Origin: Escherichia coli
Lineage (GTDB): Bacteria; Pseudomonadota; Gammaproteobacteria; Enterobacterales; Enterobacteriaceae
Strand: one strand, 5' to 3'
Assembly: GCF_003991155.1 (NCBI RefSeq)
Contig: NZ_CP031293.1
DNA length: 64,000 bases
How positions within the stretch are numbered: the stretch's first letter is position 1; every line of letters starts with the position of its first letter. Below, in pieces: positions 10,048 through 64,000 of the stretch. The notes under the pieces are model-generated. The model had not been told where the DNA came from, did not search any database, and saw only the letters and a list, made by a program, of their open reading frames with translations. Both the position numbers and the translations under genes were made by a program.

Positions 10048-10080
10048 CCCCGCCAGCTATAATCGCGGGGCTTCGTTTTT
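10048..10080 (+). terminator. rho-independent terminator of ykgJ
   Basis: CCCCGC-N11-GCGGGG hairpin followed by cttcgttttt. Confidence 0.6.
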
Positions 10081-10273
10081 CAGGGATAACAAAACCCGAA
10101 ACTTCTTCCATCTGCCAGCAACAATGCCTCTTCCTCTATAGTGTTCTCCGGATCTACAGCATCCTGAAGTAGCGCGATGTACTCACTGGCTATCTGCCAT
10201 CAGAAAGTTAAAAACAATGTTTTTAACCTATAAAAATGGCGCTGTATTTGCGCCATTTTTATCATTCAATGCA

Positions 10274-15885: not shown

Positions 15886-18612
15886 CTATTCCCATTCGCT
15901 AACATCTTTCATGCCACTGAGGGTAGCTACAATCCCGGCCCTTGTCAGTTTCACGAATTCTTCAGCCCCAACGGCATCACGAATTGCTTTCATGGCAATT
16001 TTATTGGCCGAAAATCGTTTCTCTGCTGCGGCGATCGCTGCTGGTGATGCCCCTGCGCGCACTGCTTTTGTAGCTTCCTGAACGGCTTTCTCTATCGCAT
16101 ATCGACCACTTCTTGTCGCCCCAATCTTAGCCACAGCATTTCTTAGCGCGCCACCAGCAACCAAACCACTAATCGAACCAATTACACCACCGCCAAAGCC
16201 TCCAGCGATCGCACCTGACTGTTGAACTCCGTTCATAATCACGCCGACGATCTTTGGAAGGCCTGAATCGAGCGTTTTGAGAGCCTCAGTTGTTCTTCCC
16301 GTGCGCTCTACGTATCGCTGCGGTCTGGTACTGGCTTTAGCGAGTACACCGAACTCTTTCATCATTCTACCGAGATCTGGCGCATGACGACTGATGGCGT
16401 TTACATTCTGCTGGGTCATGAGCTTGGCAAAATACTGGATACCTGACTCTTCACCGATTCCTCCCTTCTCTCCCTGCGCCACAGCATGCTGAAGAATAGA
16501 TGCTATTGCAGGTTGGCGTTCTGCTTCCGGCAGCGCGGAGATAAGACGGTGAAAAGCTCCCGTTCCAGTGTTTGCGGATGCCTTAAGCGTATCGGCACCT
16601 TTTCTTACCATAGCGTCTGATGCGAGATCTCGACCAAAAACAGATTCGGCATTTTGTTTGGCGATAATGTAACTTTTAGAGAGATCGTTAGCTTTCTGCC
16701 ATTCTGTGAGGAAGTTTCCTTTTTCAGCCATGATGCGCATGTCATCAGTGATAGCTCTGCGCATTTCTCCGGCAATCCGGGCGGCATTGGCCTTACCTGC
16801 CCGGGTGTTTGCTTGTTCAGCATCAGCAAACTTAGCACGCCATGCCTTCATCCCGTCGAAGGTTATGCCGCCACCTTGGTTGTTGGCAGCCTGAAACTGT
16901 TTCATCTCCGGGCTGAGTGGAACATTGGCTGCTTTTTCTGCTTGGACGACAGCCATCCCATTACTCATTTTCATCCTTTCGCGTGGCATCGTGCTTCGCA
17001 GTTCTGCCCATGCCATATTCTCTGCTGTTTTCATATCACTGAGGCTCGCGATGATGCGCTCTTTAATTGCTGCGCTTTTTTCTGATGCGCTTCCAGACTC
17101 AGCACCGAAATCAGACAACTGCTTATTCAACTTTGAGGATATTTCATTGAAGGCCGTAAGGTGAGCATCCTGAACATTCCCAGGAGTTGATGCCAGAACA
17201 CCTTCTGCTTGGGCAATTCCACGACTACCTGAGCGCATTCCAGGCGTCAGGGTGTTGATATTAATACCAGTGATTTTCGCCGCCTTAGCGACATCATCTC
17301 TGACGTTTGATGCCTGCGATGCGATATGCTCTCGGCCTACGGCAGAACGCGCTGCTTTCGATACATCATTGGCGGTTTCCAGAGTATTTGCTGCCCCTAA
17401 CACATGGCCTGATTGATTTGTATTACTCCGCAATACATCTCGCATTACGTCACTGGCTGTCTGTCCGCTCTTTATTAAAGCGCGTGCTCCTAGCGATCCT
17501 GCTAGGCCAATACCTGTCTCTTTTGCTAGGTCTTCTGGGCTGATCTGCCCGTTCTTTTGGGCGTTCACCAATGTACCTGGCAGGTTTTCTGCCAACATAC
17601 TAGCCACCTTTGTGGCCGCACGTTCAGCACGTGGAGCGTTGGCAACTGAAGAAGCTGCGGTAGCTGCCTTTCCTGCACCTAATCCTGTAATAAGGTAAGG
17701 TGCTAGCTGCTCACCAGCCTGCGCGTATGGATCTGTAGGTTGGTCTACTGGGCGAAAGACAGGTGATATGGGCGTGTATGTGCCATCACCCACACCAAGC
17801 TTCTGAGCTGCCCATGCTCCGGCTGATTGCGCCGCATTGACTACCCCCACGCCTGCGTCCATTACATCAAACGGTATATTAGCAATCCCTCTGGCCATCT
17901 GCTCTGGCGCAGCTTTCAGTCCTGGCGAAAGATATTCCATCTCAGGATTAAGGTTAGACTTGGCTACTTGCTGCTGCGGTTCCCCGGCATTTTCATCGGC
18001 GAGAAACTGAGCTCTTTTCTGCTCCCATGAACTGGCTGTTGGTAGTCCTGCTTCTATGTTCTTAAATTGCTGACGTTTTGCTTCCCATGCAGAAATATCT
18101 CCCACCTGAGAGATTTCTTTATCAAGCTCTGAGTAGTCAGGCTGCTGAAGATTGCGATGTTGACTGGTTTGTGCAAACTGCAAGATTTCACTGTCATCAG
18201 GGATTATTCCGGCATCTGCAAATTTACTTACGTAATTAGCCGTTTCATCTGGCAGTGTAGATTTACCGTTTCTGACGGCATTAATACGAGCATAGCCAGA
18301 ATTATACCCAGCCAATGCCATACCTATATCACCAAATCGCTTCATTCCTTTATTGAGATGGTTTGCTGCGATATCCATTTGCTTTTCAAATGGCAGTGAG
18401 CGCGGATCTGTTCCACGATAACCAGCATCACTCATTACTGAGGGCATCAGTTGAGCAAATCCTCTAGCTCCTTTCGGTGACTCGGCACTTCCGTTACCAC
18501 TAGATTCATTGCCAACTAATGTTTCCATCGTCCCTGATGGGAAACCATATTTTTCATCGAGATGACGGGAATAGGCTTTCTGTTTTTCTGTCAGTTGTGC
18601 CATCATTGCCAT
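15886..18612 (-). CDS. 908-aa protein with N-terminal soluble lytic transglycosylase domain (ejection / internal virion protein-like)
   Basis: SLT motifs near the N-terminus: NESSGN...GARGFAQLMPSV...ALAGYNSGYARI. The remainder is Ala-rich and helical with a Gly-rich hydrophobic segment near the C-terminus. The start overlaps the upstream ORF by 10 nt. Confidence 0.75.
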   Translation of the reverse strand: MAMMAQLTEKQKAYSRHLDEKYGFPSGTMETLVGNESSGNGSAESPKGARGFAQLMPSVMSDAGYRGTDPRSLPFEKQMDIAANHLNKGMKRFGDIGMALAGYNSGYARINAVRNGKSTLPDETANYVSKFADAGIIPDDSEILQFAQTSQHRNLQQPDYSELDKEISQVGDISAWEAKRQQFKNIEAGLPTASSWEQKRAQFLADENAGEPQQQVAKSNLNPEMEYLSPGLKAAPEQMARGIANIPFDVMDAGVGVVNAAQSAGAWAAQKLGVGDGTYTPISPVFRPVDQPTDPYAQAGEQLAPYLITGLGAGKAATAASSVANAPRAERAATKVASMLAENLPGTLVNAQKNGQISPEDLAKETGIGLAGSLGARALIKSGQTASDVMRDVLRSNTNQSGHVLGAANTLETANDVSKAARSAVGREHIASQASNVRDDVAKAAKITGININTLTPGMRSGSRGIAQAEGVLASTPGNVQDAHLTAFNEISSKLNKQLSDFGAESGSASEKSAAIKERIIASLSDMKTAENMAWAELRSTMPRERMKMSNGMAVVQAEKAANVPLSPEMKQFQAANNQGGGITFDGMKAWRAKFADAEQANTRAGKANAARIAGEMRRAITDDMRIMAEKGNFLTEWQKANDLSKSYIIAKQNAESVFGRDLASDAMVRKGADTLKASANTGTGAFHRLISALPEAERQPAIASILQHAVAQGEKGGIGEESGIQYFAKLMTQQNVNAISRHAPDLGRMMKEFGVLAKASTRPQRYVERTGRTTEALKTLDSGLPKIVGVIMNGVQQSGAIAGGFGGGVIGSISGLVAGGALRNAVAKIGATRSGRYAIEKAVQEATKAVRAGASPAAIAAAEKRFSANKIAMKAIRDAVGAEEFVKLTRAGIVATLSGMKDVSEWE

Positions 18613-19922
18613 CCCTTAAGTTTTGCCTGATAGTAACTTTCCGGCAGATAGCCATGTGCGGTCACATAATCCTTAACCAGTGAAGGATCCTGCAACAGCA
18701 TTTTGGTATCAGTTTCTTCGTCCTTAGATTTGGTTACAGGAATACCGAGCCCGGCAATCTGTCGTTTCTGCATTCGAATAATTACGTCCTGCGCTTTATT
18801 CAACTCTCGCAAAAATGCCTCATTGCTGGTTGCTGACTTAATGCCATTTTGAGATTGCATAAGGGCAGCCCTTTCCCCTTCGGTTGGGTTAGAGCCAAAA
18901 GTCCCTTTGAGGCTAGGCAGAATAACCTTTAGGTTGTATTCATCAGCTTTGGCGCGTAGGCTTCGTGTGTCTTCTGCTACATCAGGAAGGAATCCAAACC
19001 CCAGCGTCAGGGGGTTATAGTTCTGCGAGCGGGTAACGGCCGAAGGATGTTTCCCTACAATTCCCGCCAGTTCATGACCCACTTCAAGCGCAGAGTTCAA
19101 GGAGTCGATGTTACCTACAACAGTATTAATTTTATCGTTCATCTTCTCCACTTTCGCCTGCTGTACCTTGCTCAGTTCAGCATTGAGCTTGTCTCTCTCG
19201 ATGTCATTTTGAGCACGTCCAAGTCGTGCTTTCAGAACCATTTCTCTCGTGCGTAGTTGGTTATCGGATAGGACTTTGAACTGCTCCATATCGAGACGTC
19301 GATTACCCTGTTCCGCATTAACCTGAGCATTATATGCGGATGTATCTGCGTTCTGCTGTGCAATGCTCTGCCCTTGCTGCTTCTCTTGAACACTAAAGTA
19401 ACTATTTGGATCAGCATGGAGGTGGATGAGGTCAGTGATTCTGTTGAATTCCTGTGGGTCATTCTGCCAAGACTGATAAACCTCTTCAGCAGGAAGACCA
19501 AATCGCTGTAATACTGGATTTGCCTGCTGAATGGCCTTCTGCATGGTCAGTGGATCTCCAGTTTGTGACGCAAGACGCAGATTCATGGCAGCGTCAGCGG
19601 TCTGTCGATTTTGCTCAGCATCAATGAATCCCATCTGTTTTTGAGAATCAGCCATAAACTGGGGATACTGGGCCATTAACTTCTGCACGCCAACACGATC
19701 ATTATTAGCTACCGCACTACCCAACCGTGCCTGATATTCTTTTAACTGCTGGGAAATTTGCGCCTGCTGATTAATCTCAGCAACGCCTCTTAGCCCCTGT
19801 AGCGCCATTAAACCTACGTTTGGCTGCTGCTGATACTGCACAGGCTGAGGAACGGAAGAACGAGGAGCATTATCATTTTGCGGTGCCATGCTAGGCAGCC
19901 CGCCAAGTTGCCATGTCGCCAT
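18603..19922 (-). CDS. 439-aa Gln-rich coiled-coil protein (ejection protein-like, P22 gp20-sized)
   Basis: Long uninterrupted ORF. Its start overlaps the upstream stop by 1 nt. Composition and position inside the cassette are the only evidence. Confidence 0.6.
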   Translation of the reverse strand: MATWQLGGLPSMAPQNDNAPRSSVPQPVQYQQQPNVGLMALQGLRGVAEINQQAQISQQLKEYQARLGSAVANNDRVGVQKLMAQYPQFMADSQKQMGFIDAEQNRQTADAAMNLRLASQTGDPLTMQKAIQQANPVLQRFGLPAEEVYQSWQNDPQEFNRITDLIHLHADPNSYFSVQEKQQGQSIAQQNADTSAYNAQVNAEQGNRRLDMEQFKVLSDNQLRTREMVLKARLGRAQNDIERDKLNAELSKVQQAKVEKMNDKINTVVGNIDSLNSALEVGHELAGIVGKHPSAVTRSQNYNPLTLGFGFLPDVAEDTRSLRAKADEYNLKVILPSLKGTFGSNPTEGERAALMQSQNGIKSATSNEAFLRELNKAQDVIIRMQKRQIAGLGIPVTKSKDEETDTKMLLQDPSLVKDYVTAHGYLPESYYQAKLKGWQ

Positions 19923-20599
19923 TAGAATCCAAGCCCCCCAACAAGACCAATAAGCCCACCACCAATAGCGCCGGCCGCAGTTCCTATTCCAGGAACAACG
20001 GAACCAAGTTGCGCACCCGCTAAAGCGCCTGATGCTGCCCCACCAATACCACGCGCAAGACTGGATGGCTGCTGCGCCTGACCTGCACGAATAGCGCCAA
20101 GCCCCTGCAAGAGTTGTCCGGTATTATTGGCGTAGTTTTGCCCTGCCGTTGCCTGCCCTGATGCCGCATTCATCCCGACATTTAGCAGGTTTCCATAATT
20201 TTGCATTTGCCCACTAAGCCAATTGTTATAAAGCATGGGCGCAATGGAAGATAACTGGTTACTGGTAGCTGTTGAGCCAAGCCCCCCGGTAGCTTCTGCT
20301 GAGACAAGGTTCTGATAACGGGCCTGATCTGCCTGTGTTTTATATAAACCAGAACCAAAGAAATCATTCGCGGCTTTATTCTGCCCTTCCAGAGTCATCA
20401 GTCCTTGCAGTTGTTGTAAAGCAGGCAATCCGACTTCTGCATACGGCTTGAGATTATTCATCACCGTATTCCACTGCTCGCGCTGCAAATCAATTGCCTG
20501 CTGCTGGGCCTTCGCCTGAGCTTTAGAGGCACCACCATCACCGCCTTTTTCGTATACGGCACGATTGAGATGTTTATGAGCTATATGGGTAATTAACAT
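19922..20599 (-). CDS. 225-aa Gly/Ala/Gln-rich protein with hydrophobic Gly-zipper C-terminus (ejection protein-like, P22 gp7-sized)
   Basis: ATGTTAA start/stop overlap with the upstream ORF. C-terminus is GSVVPGIGTAAGAIGGGLIGLVGGLGF. Confidence 0.55.
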   Translation of the reverse strand: MLITHIAHKHLNRAVYEKGGDGGASKAQAKAQQQAIDLQREQWNTVMNNLKPYAEVGLPALQQLQGLMTLEGQNKAANDFFGSGLYKTQADQARYQNLVSAEATGGLGSTATSNQLSSIAPMLYNNWLSGQMQNYGNLLNVGMNAASGQATAGQNYANNTGQLLQGLGAIRAGQAQQPSSLARGIGGAASGALAGAQLGSVVPGIGTAAGAIGGGLIGLVGGLGF

Positions 20600-21054
20600 T
20601 CGCTGAATTCCTTATATTGTTGCCGAGTTAACTGATAAAGCGTTACGCCGACGGGTTTACCACATCTGATATAAGCATCATCAAGGTGACCAACACGGGT
20701 AGCGCCAAGCAAACGGATAATTGCCCGTCCATATTTTGTGGTGTCAGGAACCATAGTGATGCTGTTAAGGAATGGTGAGTTTTCGAGAAGCCATTTGCAG
20801 AATAATCGATGCCCTTGCAGTGCATATTCACCACGGAATCCGGGGTCGTACACCGCATGGCATTCAACAACGCTATGCCAGAAGTTACGCACTTCATGAA
20901 CGCCAGCCAGCACTAATCCTTCGTAGATGCCGAGATATACCGCATCAGGCTTGATGTAGTACGTGTGCCCCGGCTCAACAATATTTTCGGTATTGCCTGG
21001 CTCGTTAAGAAAGGCCTGTAATCGCACAGGGTTATCAATAAATTTTAGTTCCAT
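20593..21054 (-). CDS. 153-aa protein, possible acetyltransferase-like fold (P22 gp14-sized)
   Basis: ORF contains DPGFRGEYALQGHRLFCKWLL, which resembles GNAT motif A. First large gene of the cassette. Assignment is tentative. Confidence 0.5.
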   Translation of the reverse strand: MELKFIDNPVRLQAFLNEPGNTENIVEPGHTYYIKPDAVYLGIYEGLVLAGVHEVRNFWHSVVECHAVYDPGFRGEYALQGHRLFCKWLLENSPFLNSITMVPDTTKYGRAIIRLLGATRVGHLDDAYIRCGKPVGVTLYQLTRQQYKEFSEC

Positions 21055-26353: not shown

Positions 26354-26544
26354 TTTTCACCCCCAAGAATTACCAGCTCGGCACGGGCATCGTTAACCAA
26401 AGATGAGCACGCTTTAATCGCATCCACGACATCAGCAGCGTCCATTTCTTCAGCCGAAAGACTGACAGCAACCAGGACAGCCGCTGCTTGCTCGATTAAT
26501 TGAAGTGCGGACGTAAGTCGAGGGGCATTAATTGAGTTATTCAT
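26350..26544 (-). CDS. hypothetical 64-aa helical protein (paralog family A)
   Basis: Start MNNSINAPRL with a G-rich RBS. 8-nt overlap with the upstream stop. Confidence 0.45.
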   Translation of the reverse strand: MNNSINAPRLTSALQLIEQAAAVLVAVSLSAEEMDAADVVDAIKACSSLVNDARAELVILGGEK

Positions 26545-26755
26545 TGGTTGCCCCCGTTTTTCCTGGCATTTCGCCACCTTCCAGCAGGAAATGAACGTCA
26601 CGAACGGCGAGATCCAATATCGCGAGTAACGCCTTCAGTCTTTCGTCTCGTGAGGGAGAGTTGCTCACCAGAATGTCGTTAATCACTTCTGTCAGTGTGA
26701 TGATCTGGCTTGTGCGTTCGAGGGGATCCATATGCACATCGTAGGTTTTAATCAT
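26537..26755 (-). CDS. hypothetical 72-aa helical protein (paralog family A)
   Basis: ATG 26755 preceded by GGAGGTGG; it overlaps the icd-like stop. It is the C-terminal part of the 355-aa composite reading frame listed in the ORF track. Confidence 0.5.
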   Translation of the reverse strand: MIKTYDVHMDPLERTSQIITLTEVINDILVSNSPSRDERLKALLAILDLAVRDVHFLLEGGEMPGKTGATNE

Positions 26756-26942
26756 GAGCCACCTCCATGCGGATACGACCAGCAAAAAAGCAGACGTGAT
26801 CGCGCACCAGAGAACGGCGAGCATCGCGTTCAGACTCGGCAGCAATATGATGAATTTTGGCGGTAATTGTCGAGCAATCGCGGCGAACTGCGGCGATAAT
26901 CCAGATAAATTGCGGTTTTTGGGTAGGGGTAGTAGCCAGCAT
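26748..26942 (-). CDS. Icd-like (cell-division-inhibitor-like) small protein
   Basis: ATG 26942 with GGAGG 7 nt upstream. MLATTPTQKPQFIWIIAAVRR...AAESERDARRSL resembles proteins I remember as annotated Icd-like in P4-like islands. Its RBS is complementary to the upstream antisense RNA. Confidence 0.5.
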   Translation of the reverse strand: MLATTPTQKPQFIWIIAAVRRDCSTITAKIHHIAAESERDARRSLVRDHVCFFAGRIRMEVAHD

Positions 26943-26951
26943 GTGGCAGCC

Positions 26952-26991
26952 TCCATTCGATAGCATGTAACGCTACCACCGGAAACGCCAA
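26952..26991 (-). promoter_or_regulatory. downstream target pair of the CI/C4-like RNA (seqC-like), covering the icd-like RBS
   Basis: Minus strand reads TTGGCGT...TCGAATGGAGG. The two boxes are complementary to ACGCCAA and TCCATTCGA in the RNA loops. Confidence 0.55.
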
Positions 26992-26997
26992 TTTCGC

Positions 26998-27077
26998 TGG
27001 TGGTAGCCCAGACAGGGTTGGCGTAACCGGCTCGAATGGATACCGGCGCTTCCGAAGAAGCCCCTGCCTGAGCCACC
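26998..27077 (-). ncRNA. P4 CI / P1 C4-like antisense immunity RNA (tRNA-like acceptor stem + ACCA 3' end)
   Basis: 80 nt. GGUGGCUCAG pairs with CUGGGCUACC (10 bp, 2 G-U), followed by ACCA. Internal UUCG-capped hairpin GCUUC-UUCG-GAAGC. Exposed UCCAUUCGA and ACGCCAA have complements both upstream and downstream on the same strand. Confidence 0.6.
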
Positions 27078-27144
27078 ATTGATTGACAAAGGCGCTGGAT
27101 TATACACCAACGCCCAAAAAATGGGTGAGTCAGACCTACGACAT

Positions 27145-27166
27145 AAAAAAAGACGCTCGGCGCGTC
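27145..27166 (-). terminator. intrinsic terminator just after the upstream RNA target pair (immunity terminator-like)
   Basis: Minus strand: GACGC-gccga-GCGTC followed by TTTTTTT. It lies inside the 355-aa ORF-track frame. Confidence 0.55.
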
Positions 27167-27174
27167 ATATGTCG

Positions 27175-27198
27175 CCATTCGATTTACTAGGACGCCAA
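27175..27198 (-). promoter_or_regulatory. upstream target pair of the CI/C4-like RNA (seqA-like)
   Basis: Minus strand: TTGGCGT-N9-TCGAATGG. Same two boxes in the same order as the downstream pair. Confidence 0.5.
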
Positions 27199-27597
27199 TC
27201 CCGGCACCCGTTTTATGAGGTGCCTTATAACCATAAACCGTGTTGCCGCATAACGGCAAGCTCTTTTTTATGGACTCCGAAAACTCGCTATTGGAAGCAC
27301 CAGATGCACAGTACATCGCGCTCATTTCGTTAACGTCACGCGCGTGGACGAATGTTTTTGTGGAGTCACTACACGAGCGGAAGACATCATCTACGACCAG
27401 AAATTTTCTGGCGCAGCCGCTGACCTTCTCAATGCTAATATCATCGCCCGAGATTTCTGATATGGTTAAGGCATCCGTTCCGACCACCAGCAAATGATAA
27501 ACTTTGCTTGTATCTGCTGTATTAATGCCTGACTTTGCCGTCATATTGCTGGATTTTGGCGACATACCAGCCAGTGAAAATGTCTTCTTCTGGACGG

Positions 27598-27780
27598 TTA
27601 GCATTTGTTAACCTCCGCGAACTCCTTCATGAAACGCGCCAGCGGTTGTACGCATGGCGATTGATACCCGTCGCGATAAAACGTCACTCGGTTGTGAGAC
27701 ACGCTTTCGACAGTAACGAGTGCTCCGTGGGCATCTTTGTAGCGTTTTTGTGGTTGTGGTGTTCCTGTTGGCTTAGACAT
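27598..27780 (-). CDS. hypothetical 60-aa protein
   Basis: ATG 27780 with a GGAGG RBS, overlapping the antirepressor stop by 8 nt (MSKPTGTPQPQKRYKDAHGALVTVESV...). Confidence 0.5.
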   Translation of the reverse strand: MSKPTGTPQPQKRYKDAHGALVTVESVSHNRVTFYRDGYQSPCVQPLARFMKEFAEVNKC

Positions 27781-28606
27781 TGACCACCTCCAGACGCTTG
27801 GCGAGCCAGCGTTGCGACAGGCGGGTGAGTTCTCCTTTGCGCTGCTCATATTCCATGCCCATATCAATTAACGTGATATTGGTGCTTTCGAGATATGAGA
27901 GGTGCTCAAGCTGTTCTGCGTTCATATGGTCGCGAGGTTCGCCAGAATAGCCATTTATCCGCGCCCACTGCTTAGCAGTTAGCCCACCAAGAACGATACG
28001 AGAAATCATATTGCTCTCGTTTGTGTAGTGGTGTTGCTGCGTCGTTTTACCCATCTCGGCACGGGCCATATTCAGCGCATCGCACATTGGCTTAAAGTTG
28101 TTTGCGGCACTGAGACGGGCTTTTAGCTGGCGACGATAGCGGGCGGCGATTTCAGGCACGCTACGCTGTAATTCTTCCTCGCACTGGATGAAATAACGGC
28201 GGATAGCGCGACCCTGATCATTGCGTTCGATCATTGCCAGTTCTTTCGCCATTCCGACACTTAACAGATAGTCTTTGCCGGGTCTGCCAGAGTGCTTTAT
28301 CTTGCTGTAAGCCGCGCCATTCGGGCTTTTCCCCAAATTTGGGGAAATTGTTTTATGGACTGAGTAATCGTGCCCAATGGTGAAGTCATATTCAGAGATG
28401 CGATCAGTGATCCATGTAGAGAAGTCTTTTCCCACGCCCAACGCTTTGTGTAACGCTTTTGCGCTAACAATATTGGTTTCACGCCCACCGATATGACCAG
28501 GAATAACCGGGACAATTGCGGCAAATTCATTACCGTTAATTGTGCTCAGAGAGGCGTTCAGATGAGGGGCGGCCTCAGAAATTAATCTGCTTTTTTCGAT
28601 GTTCAT
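27773..28606 (-). CDS. phage antirepressor (AntA/Rha-type N-terminal domain)
   Basis: 277 aa. NIVSAKALHKALGVGKDFSTWITDRISEYDFTIGHDY is the AntA/AntB-type DNA-binding region as I recall it. Confidence 0.7.
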   Translation of the reverse strand: MNIEKSRLISEAAPHLNASLSTINGNEFAAIVPVIPGHIGGRETNIVSAKALHKALGVGKDFSTWITDRISEYDFTIGHDYSVHKTISPNLGKSPNGAAYSKIKHSGRPGKDYLLSVGMAKELAMIERNDQGRAIRRYFIQCEEELQRSVPEIAARYRRQLKARLSAANNFKPMCDALNMARAEMGKTTQQHHYTNESNMISRIVLGGLTAKQWARINGYSGEPRDHMNAEQLEHLSYLESTNITLIDMGMEYEQRKGELTRLSQRWLAKRLEVVNV

Positions 28607-28618
28607 TTTCAGTCTCCG

Positions 28619-29050
28619 TTAGGCGGCGTTAAACGCGTCCGGGTAGAGTTTCAGAATGTCGGCAATTTCCTGCTGAGAAAGTCCGTTGTGATCATTTATG
28701 TTCGCAAGATGGTTAATATGAGTGATCACTTTCAGAACATCACCACGGCAGGAGAAACGGTAGCGAAGGTGTGTTCCGATACCATCAGGATTCTTTTCGT
28801 CGATACGCTCCAGAGTGATTCCAAGCTGGCGTTCTAACTCTGTTGCATAGTTACGACCAGAAGACAGACGGCAGTAGCGAAGAATGTCATTTTCTGTCCA
28901 TCCCTCTATACCAGTACGCAGCATATAGACTCTGGCACGATGCTTTTTCGGTGTGCGCTTTGGTGCTTGAAGGGATTTTGTAAGGGGCGTAACATCAGAT
29001 ACACGAATATCTGAATTAGCCGCCTGTAATGGGCGGTTTTTCTTTTCCAT
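28619..29050 (-). CDS. hypothetical 143-aa protein of the island early region
   Basis: ORF whose start overlaps the alpA stop by 1 nt. The N-terminus is basic. No family recognised. Confidence 0.5.
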   Translation of the reverse strand: MEKKNRPLQAANSDIRVSDVTPLTKSLQAPKRTPKKHRARVYMLRTGIEGWTENDILRYCRLSSGRNYATELERQLGITLERIDEKNPDGIGTHLRYRFSCRGDVLKVITHINHLANINDHNGLSQQEIADILKLYPDAFNAA

Positions 29051-29253
29051 CAGGCCACCTCGTCTCTAGATTCTAATATACACTTCTCAATCCATTCATC
29101 TATTTCAGACTCAACAAAAGCAATTGCCCGACTTCCAATTTTTACCTGTTTAGGGAACCTCCCCTGACTAATAAGACGATAAATCCATGCTTTGCTATAA
29201 CCAGTTCGCCTTTGAACTTCAGAGAGACGAATTAATGAATTGTAATTAGCCAT
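29050..29253 (-). CDS. alpA: AlpA-family transcriptional regulator / excisionase
   Basis: 67 aa. LIRLSEVQRRTGYSKAWIYRLISQGRFPKQVKIGSRAIAFVESEIDEWI is the AlpA/MerR-type HTH signature. Located next to a P4-type int. Confidence 0.8.
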   Translation of the reverse strand: MANYNSLIRLSEVQRRTGYSKAWIYRLISQGRFPKQVKIGSRAIAFVESEIDEWIEKCILESRDEVA

Positions 29254-31058: not shown

Positions 31059-31077
31059 AATGGTGCCGATAATAGGA
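31059..31077. repeat. attL core within the thrW 3' end
   Basis: AATGGTGCCGATAATAGGA is repeated at 11479-11497. Confidence 0.75.
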
Positions 31078-31136
31078 GTCGAACCTACGACCTTCGCATT
31101 ACGAATGCGCTGCTCTACCAACTGAGCTATATCGGC
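31061..31136 (-). tRNA. thrW: tRNA-Thr (CGU)
   Basis: The reverse complement reads GCCGATATAGCTCAGTTGGTAGAGCAGCGCATTCGTAATGCGAAGGTCGTAGGTTCGACTCCTATTATCGGCACCA. Cloverleaf with CGT anticodon. Confidence 0.95.
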
Positions 31137-46538: not shown

Positions 46539-46623
46539 TGTAGGCATGATAAGACGCGCCAGCGTCGCATCAGGCATCGGTGCACAATTGCCGAATCCGG
46601 CGTGAACGCCCTCTCCGTCCTAC
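46539..46623. repeat. REP element pair
   Basis: GTAGGCATGATAAGACGCGCCAGCGTCGCATCAGGC and a second REP that ends over the yafL stop. Confidence 0.75.
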
Positions 46624-62892: not shown

Positions 62893-62969
62893 TGGCGGAA
62901 CGGACGGGACTCGAACCCGCGACCCCCTGCGTGACAGGCAGGTATTCTAACCGACTGAACTACCGCTCC
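62893..62969 (-). tRNA. aspU: tRNA-Asp (GUC)
   Basis: Identical in sequence to the aspV copy at 54670-54746. Distal gene of the rrn operon. Confidence 0.95.
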
Positions 62970-63021
62970 ACCGAATTCTTTTACAACCACCGGTTTTATG
63001 ACCGGCTTACTGCTTAATTTG

Positions 63022-63141
63022 ATGCCTGGCAGTTCCCTACTCTCGCATGGGGAGACCCCACACTACCATCGGCGCTACGGCGTTTCACTTCTGAGTTCGG
63101 CATGGGGTCAGGTGGGACCACCGCGCTAAGGCCGCCAGGCA
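63022..63141 (-). rRNA. rrfH: 5S ribosomal RNA
   Basis: The reverse complement begins TGCCTGGCGGCC and ends ...GGGAACTGCCAGGCAT. 120 nt. Confidence 0.95.
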
Positions 63142-63240
63142 AATTCTGTTTTATCAACACGTCCTGTTCTGACCTGTCGATTTAATCTGTATCAAGCTTA
63201 CTTGTCGATGTCTCTTCCGCCAAAACACCTTCGGCGTTGT

Positions 63241-64000
<760 letters not shown>

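Follow-up and report, generated by a model that had tools for sequence, protein, structure and literature searches.

A P4-type antisense RNA immunity switch very probably lies within an eta-like read-through frame of an Escherichia coli satellite prophage

The 64,000-nucleotide stretch of Escherichia coli DNA analysed here (contig NZ_CP031293.1 of RefSeq assembly GCF_003991155.1; hereafter the window) carries on its minus strand a 355-codon open reading frame (ORF) whose product is named 'ash family protein' in RefSeq. The question raised by this locus is whether the ORF is a protein gene, a chance reading of something else, or a frame with a use of its own. A preliminary description, made from the sequence alone, had proposed that the ORF hides an antisense RNA immunity module like that of P4 (CI RNA) and of P1 (C4 RNA), and had judged the protein call very likely wrong. 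Our analysis indicates, with a high degree of confidence in the explanation taken as a whole, that the region is a P4-type RNA immunity switch located inside an eta-like read-through frame, and that it is part of a P4-type satellite prophage inserted at tRNA-Thr(CGU). Systems of this kind have already been described for P4, P1 and Gifsy-1 and are recognised by Rfam. The parts of the module and the frame around it are the following.

26537-27604, minus strand: eta-like read-through ORF of 355 codons, spanning promoter, leader, terminator, C4, targets and (out of frame) icd, and ending in a small real gene
27230-27259, minus strand: putative PLE-like promoter, TTGCCG (27259-27254), 18 nt, TATGGT (27235-27230)
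27146-27223, minus strand: isrK/seqA-type leader RNA; it contains box a1 (27198-27192), box b1 (27182-27175) and an intrinsic terminator
27099-27104, minus strand: TATAAT hexamer between terminator and C4, an uncertain candidate for a second C4 promoter
26996-27083, minus strand: C4/CI-family antisense RNA gene, assigned by Rfam (RF01695), fold, covariation and 71% DNA identity to P4 cI
27032-27040, minus strand: b' box UCCAUUCGA in a C4 hairpin loop on a GCCGG/CCGGU stem; it differs among relatives and co-varies with b1 and b2
27018-27024, minus strand: a' box ACGCCAA in the unpaired C4 junction; it co-varies with a1 and a2 in the allele of relatives L126-129 and in P4
26950-26991, minus strand: seqC-type downstream target with a2 TTGGCGT (26991-26985) and b2 TCGAATGGA overlapping a GGAGG Shine-Dalgarno sequence (26960-26950)
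26748-26942, minus strand: icd/kil-like gene of 64 amino acids (aa), the first gene under predicted C4 control, in frame 2 relative to the long ORF

When the whole window was scanned with Rfam at the gathering thresholds (45 bits for C4, 50 bits for isrK), the C4 antisense RNA family (RF01695) matched 27083-26996 on the minus strand with 79.5 bits (E 6e-14) over the entire model (positions 1-87 of 87), and the isrK family (RF01394) matched 27223-27146 on the same strand with 60.5 bits, also over the full model (1-77 of 77). The covariance-model check suggested in the preliminary description thus turned out in favour of the module, and the upstream target with its terminator proved to be a full-length isrK match in its own right. 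Located upstream of C4 and containing the terminator and the boxes, this match has the composition of an isrK/seqA-type leader (Rfam families RF01394 and RF03163; seqA).

The single elements named earlier were all present on the minus strand: the acceptor-like strands (GGTGGCTCAG, beginning at 27077, and CTGGGCTACC, followed by ACCA and ending at 26998), the UUCG-capped hairpin (GCUUC-UUCG-GAAGC), the two exposed segments, the upstream target (TTGGCGT-N9-TCGAATGG, 27198-27175) with its terminator, the overlap of the downstream target with the ribosome binding site (RBS) and the ATG behind it. Two details had to be corrected: the acceptor-like stem, given as 10 bp, is a closing helix of 17 bp, and the second downstream box (TCGAATGGAGG, 26960-26950), 7 nt ahead of the icd ATG (26942), ends at 26950 instead of 26952. 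The term 'tRNA-like' is apt in a loose sense, but ARAGORN calls no tRNA there. The architecture of the Rfam model, in which the closing helix is combined with two hairpins and the unpaired a' junction, was also found in the predicted minimum free energy (MFE) structure. The 88-nt C4 stretch has an MFE of -47.2 kcal/mol (z = -5.8) and none of 200 shuffled sequences was equally stable, a result that agrees with the fold proposed before. The mature C4 RNA is predicted to extend from about 27077 to about 26998, with RNase P cleavage 5' of GGU, a site placed by comparison with P1. In P1, RNase P cuts C4 at GGU, the b' loop occludes the RBS and a' confers specificity (PMC5320573).

The two-box pattern TTGGCGT-N5-30-TCGAATGG occurred three times in the 64 kb, against 0.02 expected: in the upstream target (27198-27175), in the downstream target (26991-26953) and, as the complement, inside C4. 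Loop and junction of the RNA thus have complements on either side of it, upstream (seqA) as well as downstream (seqC), all on one strand. When viral contigs were scanned with this pattern for trans targets in helper phages, scattered single matches in unrelated metagenome contigs were obtained, which by our estimate are chance-like for 15 bases and uninformative.

Relatives of the module were collected with a search pattern fixing only the invariant parts of C4, which yielded 120 viral contigs and, from these, 97 unique extracts with 16 different b' loops. In all 16 loop types a complement of the type's own loop (7-10 nt) was present about 33 nt 3' of C4, and in 13 of them also upstream, at a fixed register of about 59 or about 98 nt; the window is of the 98 type. 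In the cross-type control the matches were about 5 nt long on average. The stems behaved in the same way as the boxes: among 29 distinct relatives all 783 pair cells (100%) were standard, and 8 pairs showed changes on both sides, whereas with slid partners pairing fell to 32-52% (helix 3 of C4 was fixed by the search pattern and is uninformative for covariation). The outcome that the preliminary description had set against an RNA, conservation following the codon periodicity of the 355-aa frame instead of stem covariation, was not what was found, since the stems covary and the module has no such periodicity (see below).

Among six E. coli relatives, with 88-96% identity across the ORF and no indels, three immunity alleles occur, set between flanks that do not vary. 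Within these otherwise near-identical elements a1, a' and a2 change jointly, and so do b1, b' and b2. The duplexes of cognate b loops and b2 boxes have energies of -15.6 to -18.6 kcal/mol, as against -5.6 to -10.4 kcal/mol for non-cognate combinations. The existence of three discrete alleles without indels suggests that satellites exchange them by recombination. Variation is concentrated in the immunity cassette: in a comparison of L126-L131 with window positions 26943-27223, 98 of 281 positions were variable, whereas the promoter had no variable position among 36 and icd had 5 among 195. In some viral contigs C4 is present twice, or the module is duplicated in tandem and fused with a Rha-type gene into one frame-0 ORF (L073, positions 7712 and 8578; L068, with a 599-aa ORF).

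The intrinsic terminator of the leader (GACGC-GCCGA-GCGTC followed by T7, 27166-27145) was flagged by the terminator scan and is the counterpart of P4 t1. The promoter was assigned because of its positional homology with P4 and its invariance: it aligns by position with TTGCCT-18-TATAGT just upstream of the P4 isrK match, and it contains no variable site among 7 relatives (88-100% identity). That it is active we infer by homology; transcription is predicted to start where the isrK model begins, at about 27223. The -35 hexamer and the spacer of this promoter are spanned by a perfect 6-bp inverted repeat (TTGCCG-TTATG-CGGCAA, 27243-27259). It was flagged by the scanner as a terminator-like hairpin of the plus strand, is invariant in 7 relatives, and could be an operator or an mRNA hairpin. 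The TATAAT hexamer is kept in the three E. coli alleles and absent from most other relatives with the long spacer; its -35 is poor and the sigma-70 scanner did not flag it.

The 64-aa ORF behind the downstream target matched the NCBIfam family phage_ICD_like (NF033153) with 69.7 bits (cut-off 25), so that the earlier description of 26942-26748 as Icd-like holds. P4 Kil matches the same family with 76 bits, and in a pairwise comparison the Icd-like protein was 44% identical to it (E 2e-11). As expected of a kil/Icd-like gene of such systems, it comes first after seqC and has its RBS within the target, GGAGG being inside b2. A tblastn search of the phage collection with the 64-aa protein returned nothing at E <= 1e-3, the query being too short for the size of the database.

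The frame in which the module is embedded has properties of its own. The long ORF starts with GGAGG-N7-ATG, and its ATG overlaps the stop codon of the upstream DUF4222 gene as ATGCTAA; among the relatives such an overlap of the first ATG with the stop codon of a preceding ORF was present in 75 of 98 contexts. Frame 0 was free of stops across the whole extract of about 600 nt in 90 of the 97 unique loci, with the other two frames open in 11 and in none. In the non-redundant variable segments frame 0 contained no stop in 254, 100 and 98 codons, where shuffles gave 9.5, 5.4 and 5.9, which makes 0 stops in 452 variable codons versus about 21 expected, and the other frames do contain stops; all these counts use related sequences and are not fully independent. 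The frame-0 ORF ranges from 180 to 600 aa among relatives, and its N- and C-terminal extensions are varied.

This openness was not accompanied by constraint on the amino acid sequence, which was absent from codons 1-220 and confined to the last 70 or so. Variable sites were distributed over the three codon positions as 18/9/18 in the N-terminal 115 codons and as 7/6/3, 9/9/7, 13/10/14 and 7/6/7 in the module segments. The ratios of synonymous to nonsynonymous changes in frame 0 (13/31 and 12/55) were no different from those of other frames (13/57 and 7/60 versus 12/55). In the last 70 codons the distribution was biased (1/3/8) and the ratio was 8/4, versus 0/11 and 2/9 in the other frames; control genes gave 7/3 and 7/2. 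This part of the long ORF coincides with a small gene.

26537-26755, minus strand: 72-codon gene with coding-type bias, its own GGAGG and an ATG overlapping the icd stop, in frame with the long ORF

No family match was obtained for the 72-codon gene in the Pfam and NCBIfam scans. In the RefSeq records inspected, 26755-26537 was never annotated separately.

In most relatives the gene downstream of the module starts in frame 0 ('MAT.P.L...'), whereas here a one-base difference places the icd ATG in frame 2. Within the clade of the window, frame 0, which is the +1 frame of icd, runs without stops across icd in 14 of 14 distinct sequences; of 12 Icd genes that are in frame, 6 have stops in the equivalent +1 frame (Fisher p = 0.004; sequences non-independent). 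In the 9-nt-loop subfamily and in the P1-like phage RCS47 the RNAs are kept and the frame is broken.

Taken together, the 355-codon ORF appears to be neither a normal protein gene nor an accident, and judging from its sequence features it is probably the counterpart of P4 eta. The frame seems to be selected for translatability and not for a particular peptide, which fits the eta precedent. The statement that the ORF call is very likely wrong was therefore right in that this is no ordinary protein gene, only the last 70 or so codons being constrained, but in its full form it finds no support, the frame being conserved open, coupled by its start to the gene before it and equivalent in position to eta. 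The simple view that the long ORF and its Pfam match are just spurious was dropped because of the frame conservation measured.

The Pfam match in question, Phage_ASH (PF10554), scored 105 bits over residues 124-232 of the long ORF, that is 27235-26909. It coincides exactly with isrK, C4 and the a2/b2 target, and the conserved 'residues' of the profile are conserved RNA elements read in frame 0. Despite the passing profile score, purifying selection on amino acids was not detected over the domain. The complete profile is present in P4 Eta (82 bits) but not in P4 epsilon, which matches PF25738. In a survey of P4-like satellites PF10554 served as the marker of P4 epsilon (PMC8628076); here it marks Eta and the RNA module, not epsilon. 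The loci behind this comparison were window 26909-27235, L002:1240-1839 and L002:1832-2119.

The exact 355-aa product is present under the name 'ash family protein' on 780 contigs. The NCBI Prokaryotic Genome Annotation Pipeline (PGAP) treats near-identical copies (L001, L126-L131) inconsistently, either as an intact 355-aa coding sequence without icd or as a truncated pseudogene with a separate icd; in some records, therefore, the protein call masks the icd gene. An RNA gene was not listed for either of the two RNAs in any RefSeq record inspected.

Comparison with P4 gave the closest parallels. P4-like satellites use homologues of IsrK and C4, which are called seqA and CI RNA (PMC3632133). 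According to a secondary summary (PMC10111431), both P4 CI and a constitutive promoter lie inside eta, and Kil is a shortened form of Eta; the same source describes a coupling of Eta to the alpA homologue and reports that translation of Eta prevents immunity termination. In our Rfam scan the P4 immunity region contained C4 (74.9 bits) and, upstream of it, isrK (60.8 bits) and c4-a1b1, in the same order as in the window, and the C4-region DNA of the window is 71% identical to the old P4 ORF labelled 'cI gene product (AA 1-137)'. These common matches, the passing scores of both families and the covariation of stems and boxes bear out the central claim of the preliminary description, that a C4/CI-type antisense immunity module is present. 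In the P4 sequence, eta is an ORF of 199 codons within which kil is nested; the eta start codon and the stop codon of orf88 (the AlpA homologue) overlap as ATGA, and eta runs in the same frame as the window ORF through promoter, leader, terminator and CI. The likeness thus extends from element order, both Rfam families and promoter position to the Kil/Icd homology, the Shine-Dalgarno sequence in the downstream box, the long frame-0 ORF coupled to an upstream gene and the Phage_ASH footprint. The a and b boxes, in contrast, differ, so that the two systems are predicted to be heteroimmune. Unlike in P4, the long ORF of the window continues into a further gene (the 72-codon gene), and is separated from alpA by AntA, DUF4222 and a 143-aa ORF; Pfam detects no epsilon, psu or delta, the primase is of the Toprim-DUF927 type, and P22-like ejection genes follow.

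The immI region of P1 and P7, represented here by the P1-like phage RCS47, has a C4-family RNA (75.4 bits), an isrK-type a1/b1 leader (60.2 bits), a2/b2 over the icd RBS and an Icd-like first gene, followed by ant. The pieces are in the same relative frame but do not form one ORF, since there are stop codons between leader ORF, C4 ORF and icd. In P1 ant comes after icd; in the window no coupled ant was found downstream of icd, which is followed by the 72-aa ORF, and the AntA gene lies upstream of the module. The preliminary description had included the AntA gene in the operon of the module. A long upstream transcript could indeed be common to both, but the gene is upstream and hence not under C4 control in the manner of P1.

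In Gifsy-1 of Salmonella (isrK-orf45 (STnc1160)-anrP), IsrK is structurally homologous to seqA, and the orf45 region gives rise to a processed RNA of about 80 nt; orf45, which runs across the C4 region, was found experimentally to be translated and coupled to the next gene, and IsrK provided in trans raises anrP translation about 140-fold via orf45 (PMC4825925). Common features are the isrK leader with its terminator and, as predicted for the window, the coupling of C4-region translation to the next gene. From its mapping to the related Salmonella phage locus L003, we infer that the orf45 start (+107) is the AUG conserved in frame 0 at the 5' end of C4. Gifsy-1 differs from the window in being of the lambdoid short-spacer type, with b1 about 59 nt upstream of C4 as against about 98 nt, in having a Rha-type antirepressor gene downstream instead of icd, and in its published model, which gives more weight to activation by IsrK than to repression by the C4-like RNA.

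Taking these systems as guides, the switch may be envisaged as follows. By homology with P4 and P1, the PLE-like promoter inside the long ORF would start a leader containing a1, b1 and the terminator. Transcripts that read through would contain the C4/CI-family RNA, presumably freed by RNase P at GGU (27077). Its a' junction and b' loop could pair with a1 and b1, which in P4 favours termination in the leader and autoregulates CI, and they could also pair with a2 and b2 over the icd/kil-like Shine-Dalgarno sequence, so that icd translation would be blocked. Termination and polarity together would keep the small genes further downstream and the Toprim-DUF927 primase silent. Since frame 0 is stop-free and its start is coupled to the upstream gene, ribosomes on transcripts coming from an upstream promoter would run through leader, terminator and C4, and immunity would be overridden.

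Several observations weigh against a P4-type switch in an eta-like frame. The leader folded alone is not better than shuffled sequences (z -1.27), the PLE-like promoter matches the consensus in only 8 of 12 positions and was not flagged by the sigma-70 scanner, and frame conservation was counted in sequences that share ancestry. The ORF spans the module and is coupled upstream as eta is, but the Eta-Kil nesting of P4 has no parallel in the clade of the window, as icd is shifted by one base (frame 2) and not nested in the long ORF; moreover, 127 codons precede the leader, versus about 25 in P4, which gives the ORF an extra N-terminal part. The island is not a canonical P4 either: among its ORFs of at least 90 aa, Pfam matched int, AlpA and the Toprim-DUF927 primase but neither psu nor delta (Sid has no Pfam model, so that the scan is blind to sid), and P22-like ejection genes are carried. 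Two alternatives turn on the meaning of the frame. The one favoured in the preliminary description is a pure RNA module with a chance ORF that is never usefully translated. It would account for the lack of codon periodicity and synonymous excess in the N-terminal 115 codons and in the module, for the unconserved amino acid sequence of the spacer, for the promoter, terminator and structured RNA within the ORF, for the broken frames of the 9-nt-loop subfamily and RCS47, and for the inconsistent PGAP annotation. It does not agree with the stop-free frame 0 in nearly all loci and in the variable codons, with spacer lengths that differ by 39 nt and so stay in frame, with the finding that 37 of 88 C4 positions differ between alleles without an indel or a stop, or with the canonical Shine-Dalgarno sequence and ATG overlapping the upstream stop, for which P4 eta and Gifsy-1 orf45 are precedents; we consider it improbable. 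The opposite alternative, implied by Pfam and PGAP, is a genuine folded regulatory protein of the 'Ash family' to which the RNA matches are incidental. The profile score, the fact that the profile matches relatives with many different flanks, the wide occurrence of the named product and the conserved frame speak for a protein. The profile, however, is exactly isrK, C4 and a2/b2, substitutions track stems and boxes and not codon positions (the ratio of 12/55 equals that of other frames), and where a stem has changed in a compensatory way, the 'protein' is altered at both of its strands; of all the explanations considered this one seems to us the least credible.

Two further possibilities concern the working of the module. 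If Gifsy-1 is the better guide, the short terminated isrK-like RNA would be more than a target site: it would act in trans by pairing with the C4 region of read-through transcripts, or titrate C4 RNA, and so switch on translation of the downstream genes. The effect of IsrK on anrP, the isrK family match in the window and the identity of a1/b1 with a2/b2, which would allow a free leader to compete for C4, are in line with this. Such activation would add to the immunity model without replacing it, P4 elements giving repression and termination, and the window belongs with the long-spacer satellites, whereas the work on Gifsy-1 concerned the lambdoid type; we hold it to be possible, if rather unlikely. 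The module could also be the non-functional remnant of a decaying cryptic element, as might be thought from the failure to find an attR repeat in the window and psu and delta by Pfam, and from the truncated annotation of the ORF in strain 83972. This is very unlikely in view of the intact state of all parts, the many matches among complete genomes (see below), the three alleles that keep perfect three-way complementarity together with an intact frame, and the invariant promoter region.

The element that carries the switch adjoins tRNA-Thr(CGU), which ARAGORN located at 31061-31136. The gene order of the island is integrase, AlpA, 143-aa ORF, AntA-family gene, DUF4222 gene, long ORF, icd, small ORFs, Toprim-DUF927 primase and P22-type genes. 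The long ORF is preceded by a chain of tightly packed genes.

27598-29253, minus strand: upstream chain leading into the long ORF, with overlapping or near-abutting stops and starts
29050-29253, minus strand: alpA (Pfam Phage_AlpA, 71 bits)
28619-29050, minus strand: 143-aa ORF
27773-28606, minus strand: AntA antirepressor-family gene (Pfam AntA, 76.3 bits)
27598-27780, minus strand: DUF4222 gene (Pfam DUF4222, 85.4 bits)

A search of the window for an attR copy of the tRNA-Thr 3' end returned the tRNA itself only, which leaves the far end of the island undefined. Downstream of the primase, on the same strand, P22-type genes occupy 15886-21054: DUF2824 (gp14-like head morphogenesis), the gp7 ejection protein, a gp20-like injectosome translocase and a 908-aa protein with an SLT domain. 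Genes of this kind are unusual cargo for a P4-type regulatory core. The cluster mates of the 355-aa ORF include entries labelled 'injection protein'. Elsewhere in the window, the Rfam scan returned IS009 RNA (191.7 bits), naRNA4 (60.4 bits, barely over the threshold of 59.5) and, from an rRNA operon, the 3' end with tRNA, 5S and partial 23S, at positions 10067-10268, 46543-46620 and 62896-64000, respectively.

The locus cautions against two opposite errors of annotation: a conserved open frame and a passing Pfam score are no proof of a protein, and a structured RNA within an ORF is no proof that the ORF is meaningless. A more general proposal can be made, for and against which we see the arguments as evenly balanced. 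According to this, PF10554 would be not a protein domain but the frame-0 footprint of the isrK-C4-target module; across P4-like satellites, phage-inducible chromosomal islands (PICIs) and many lambdoid prophages the module would sit in a frame selected only for openness and upstream coupling, a sequence-indifferent 'ribosome track' by which RNA immunity is overridden; and in the clade of the window icd would have slipped out of the track, which is still open across icd into the next gene. If this is true, production of Icd would have become separated from the override mode. The three alleles in otherwise identical elements point to diversifying immunity specificity. Of 5426 complete E. coli genomes, 1258 had a match to a 1.2-kb region of the locus, and in 478 the match covered at least 80% of it. 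With matches in about a quarter of the complete genomes, the satellite is a widespread one, and the module probably decides between its silence and its replication.

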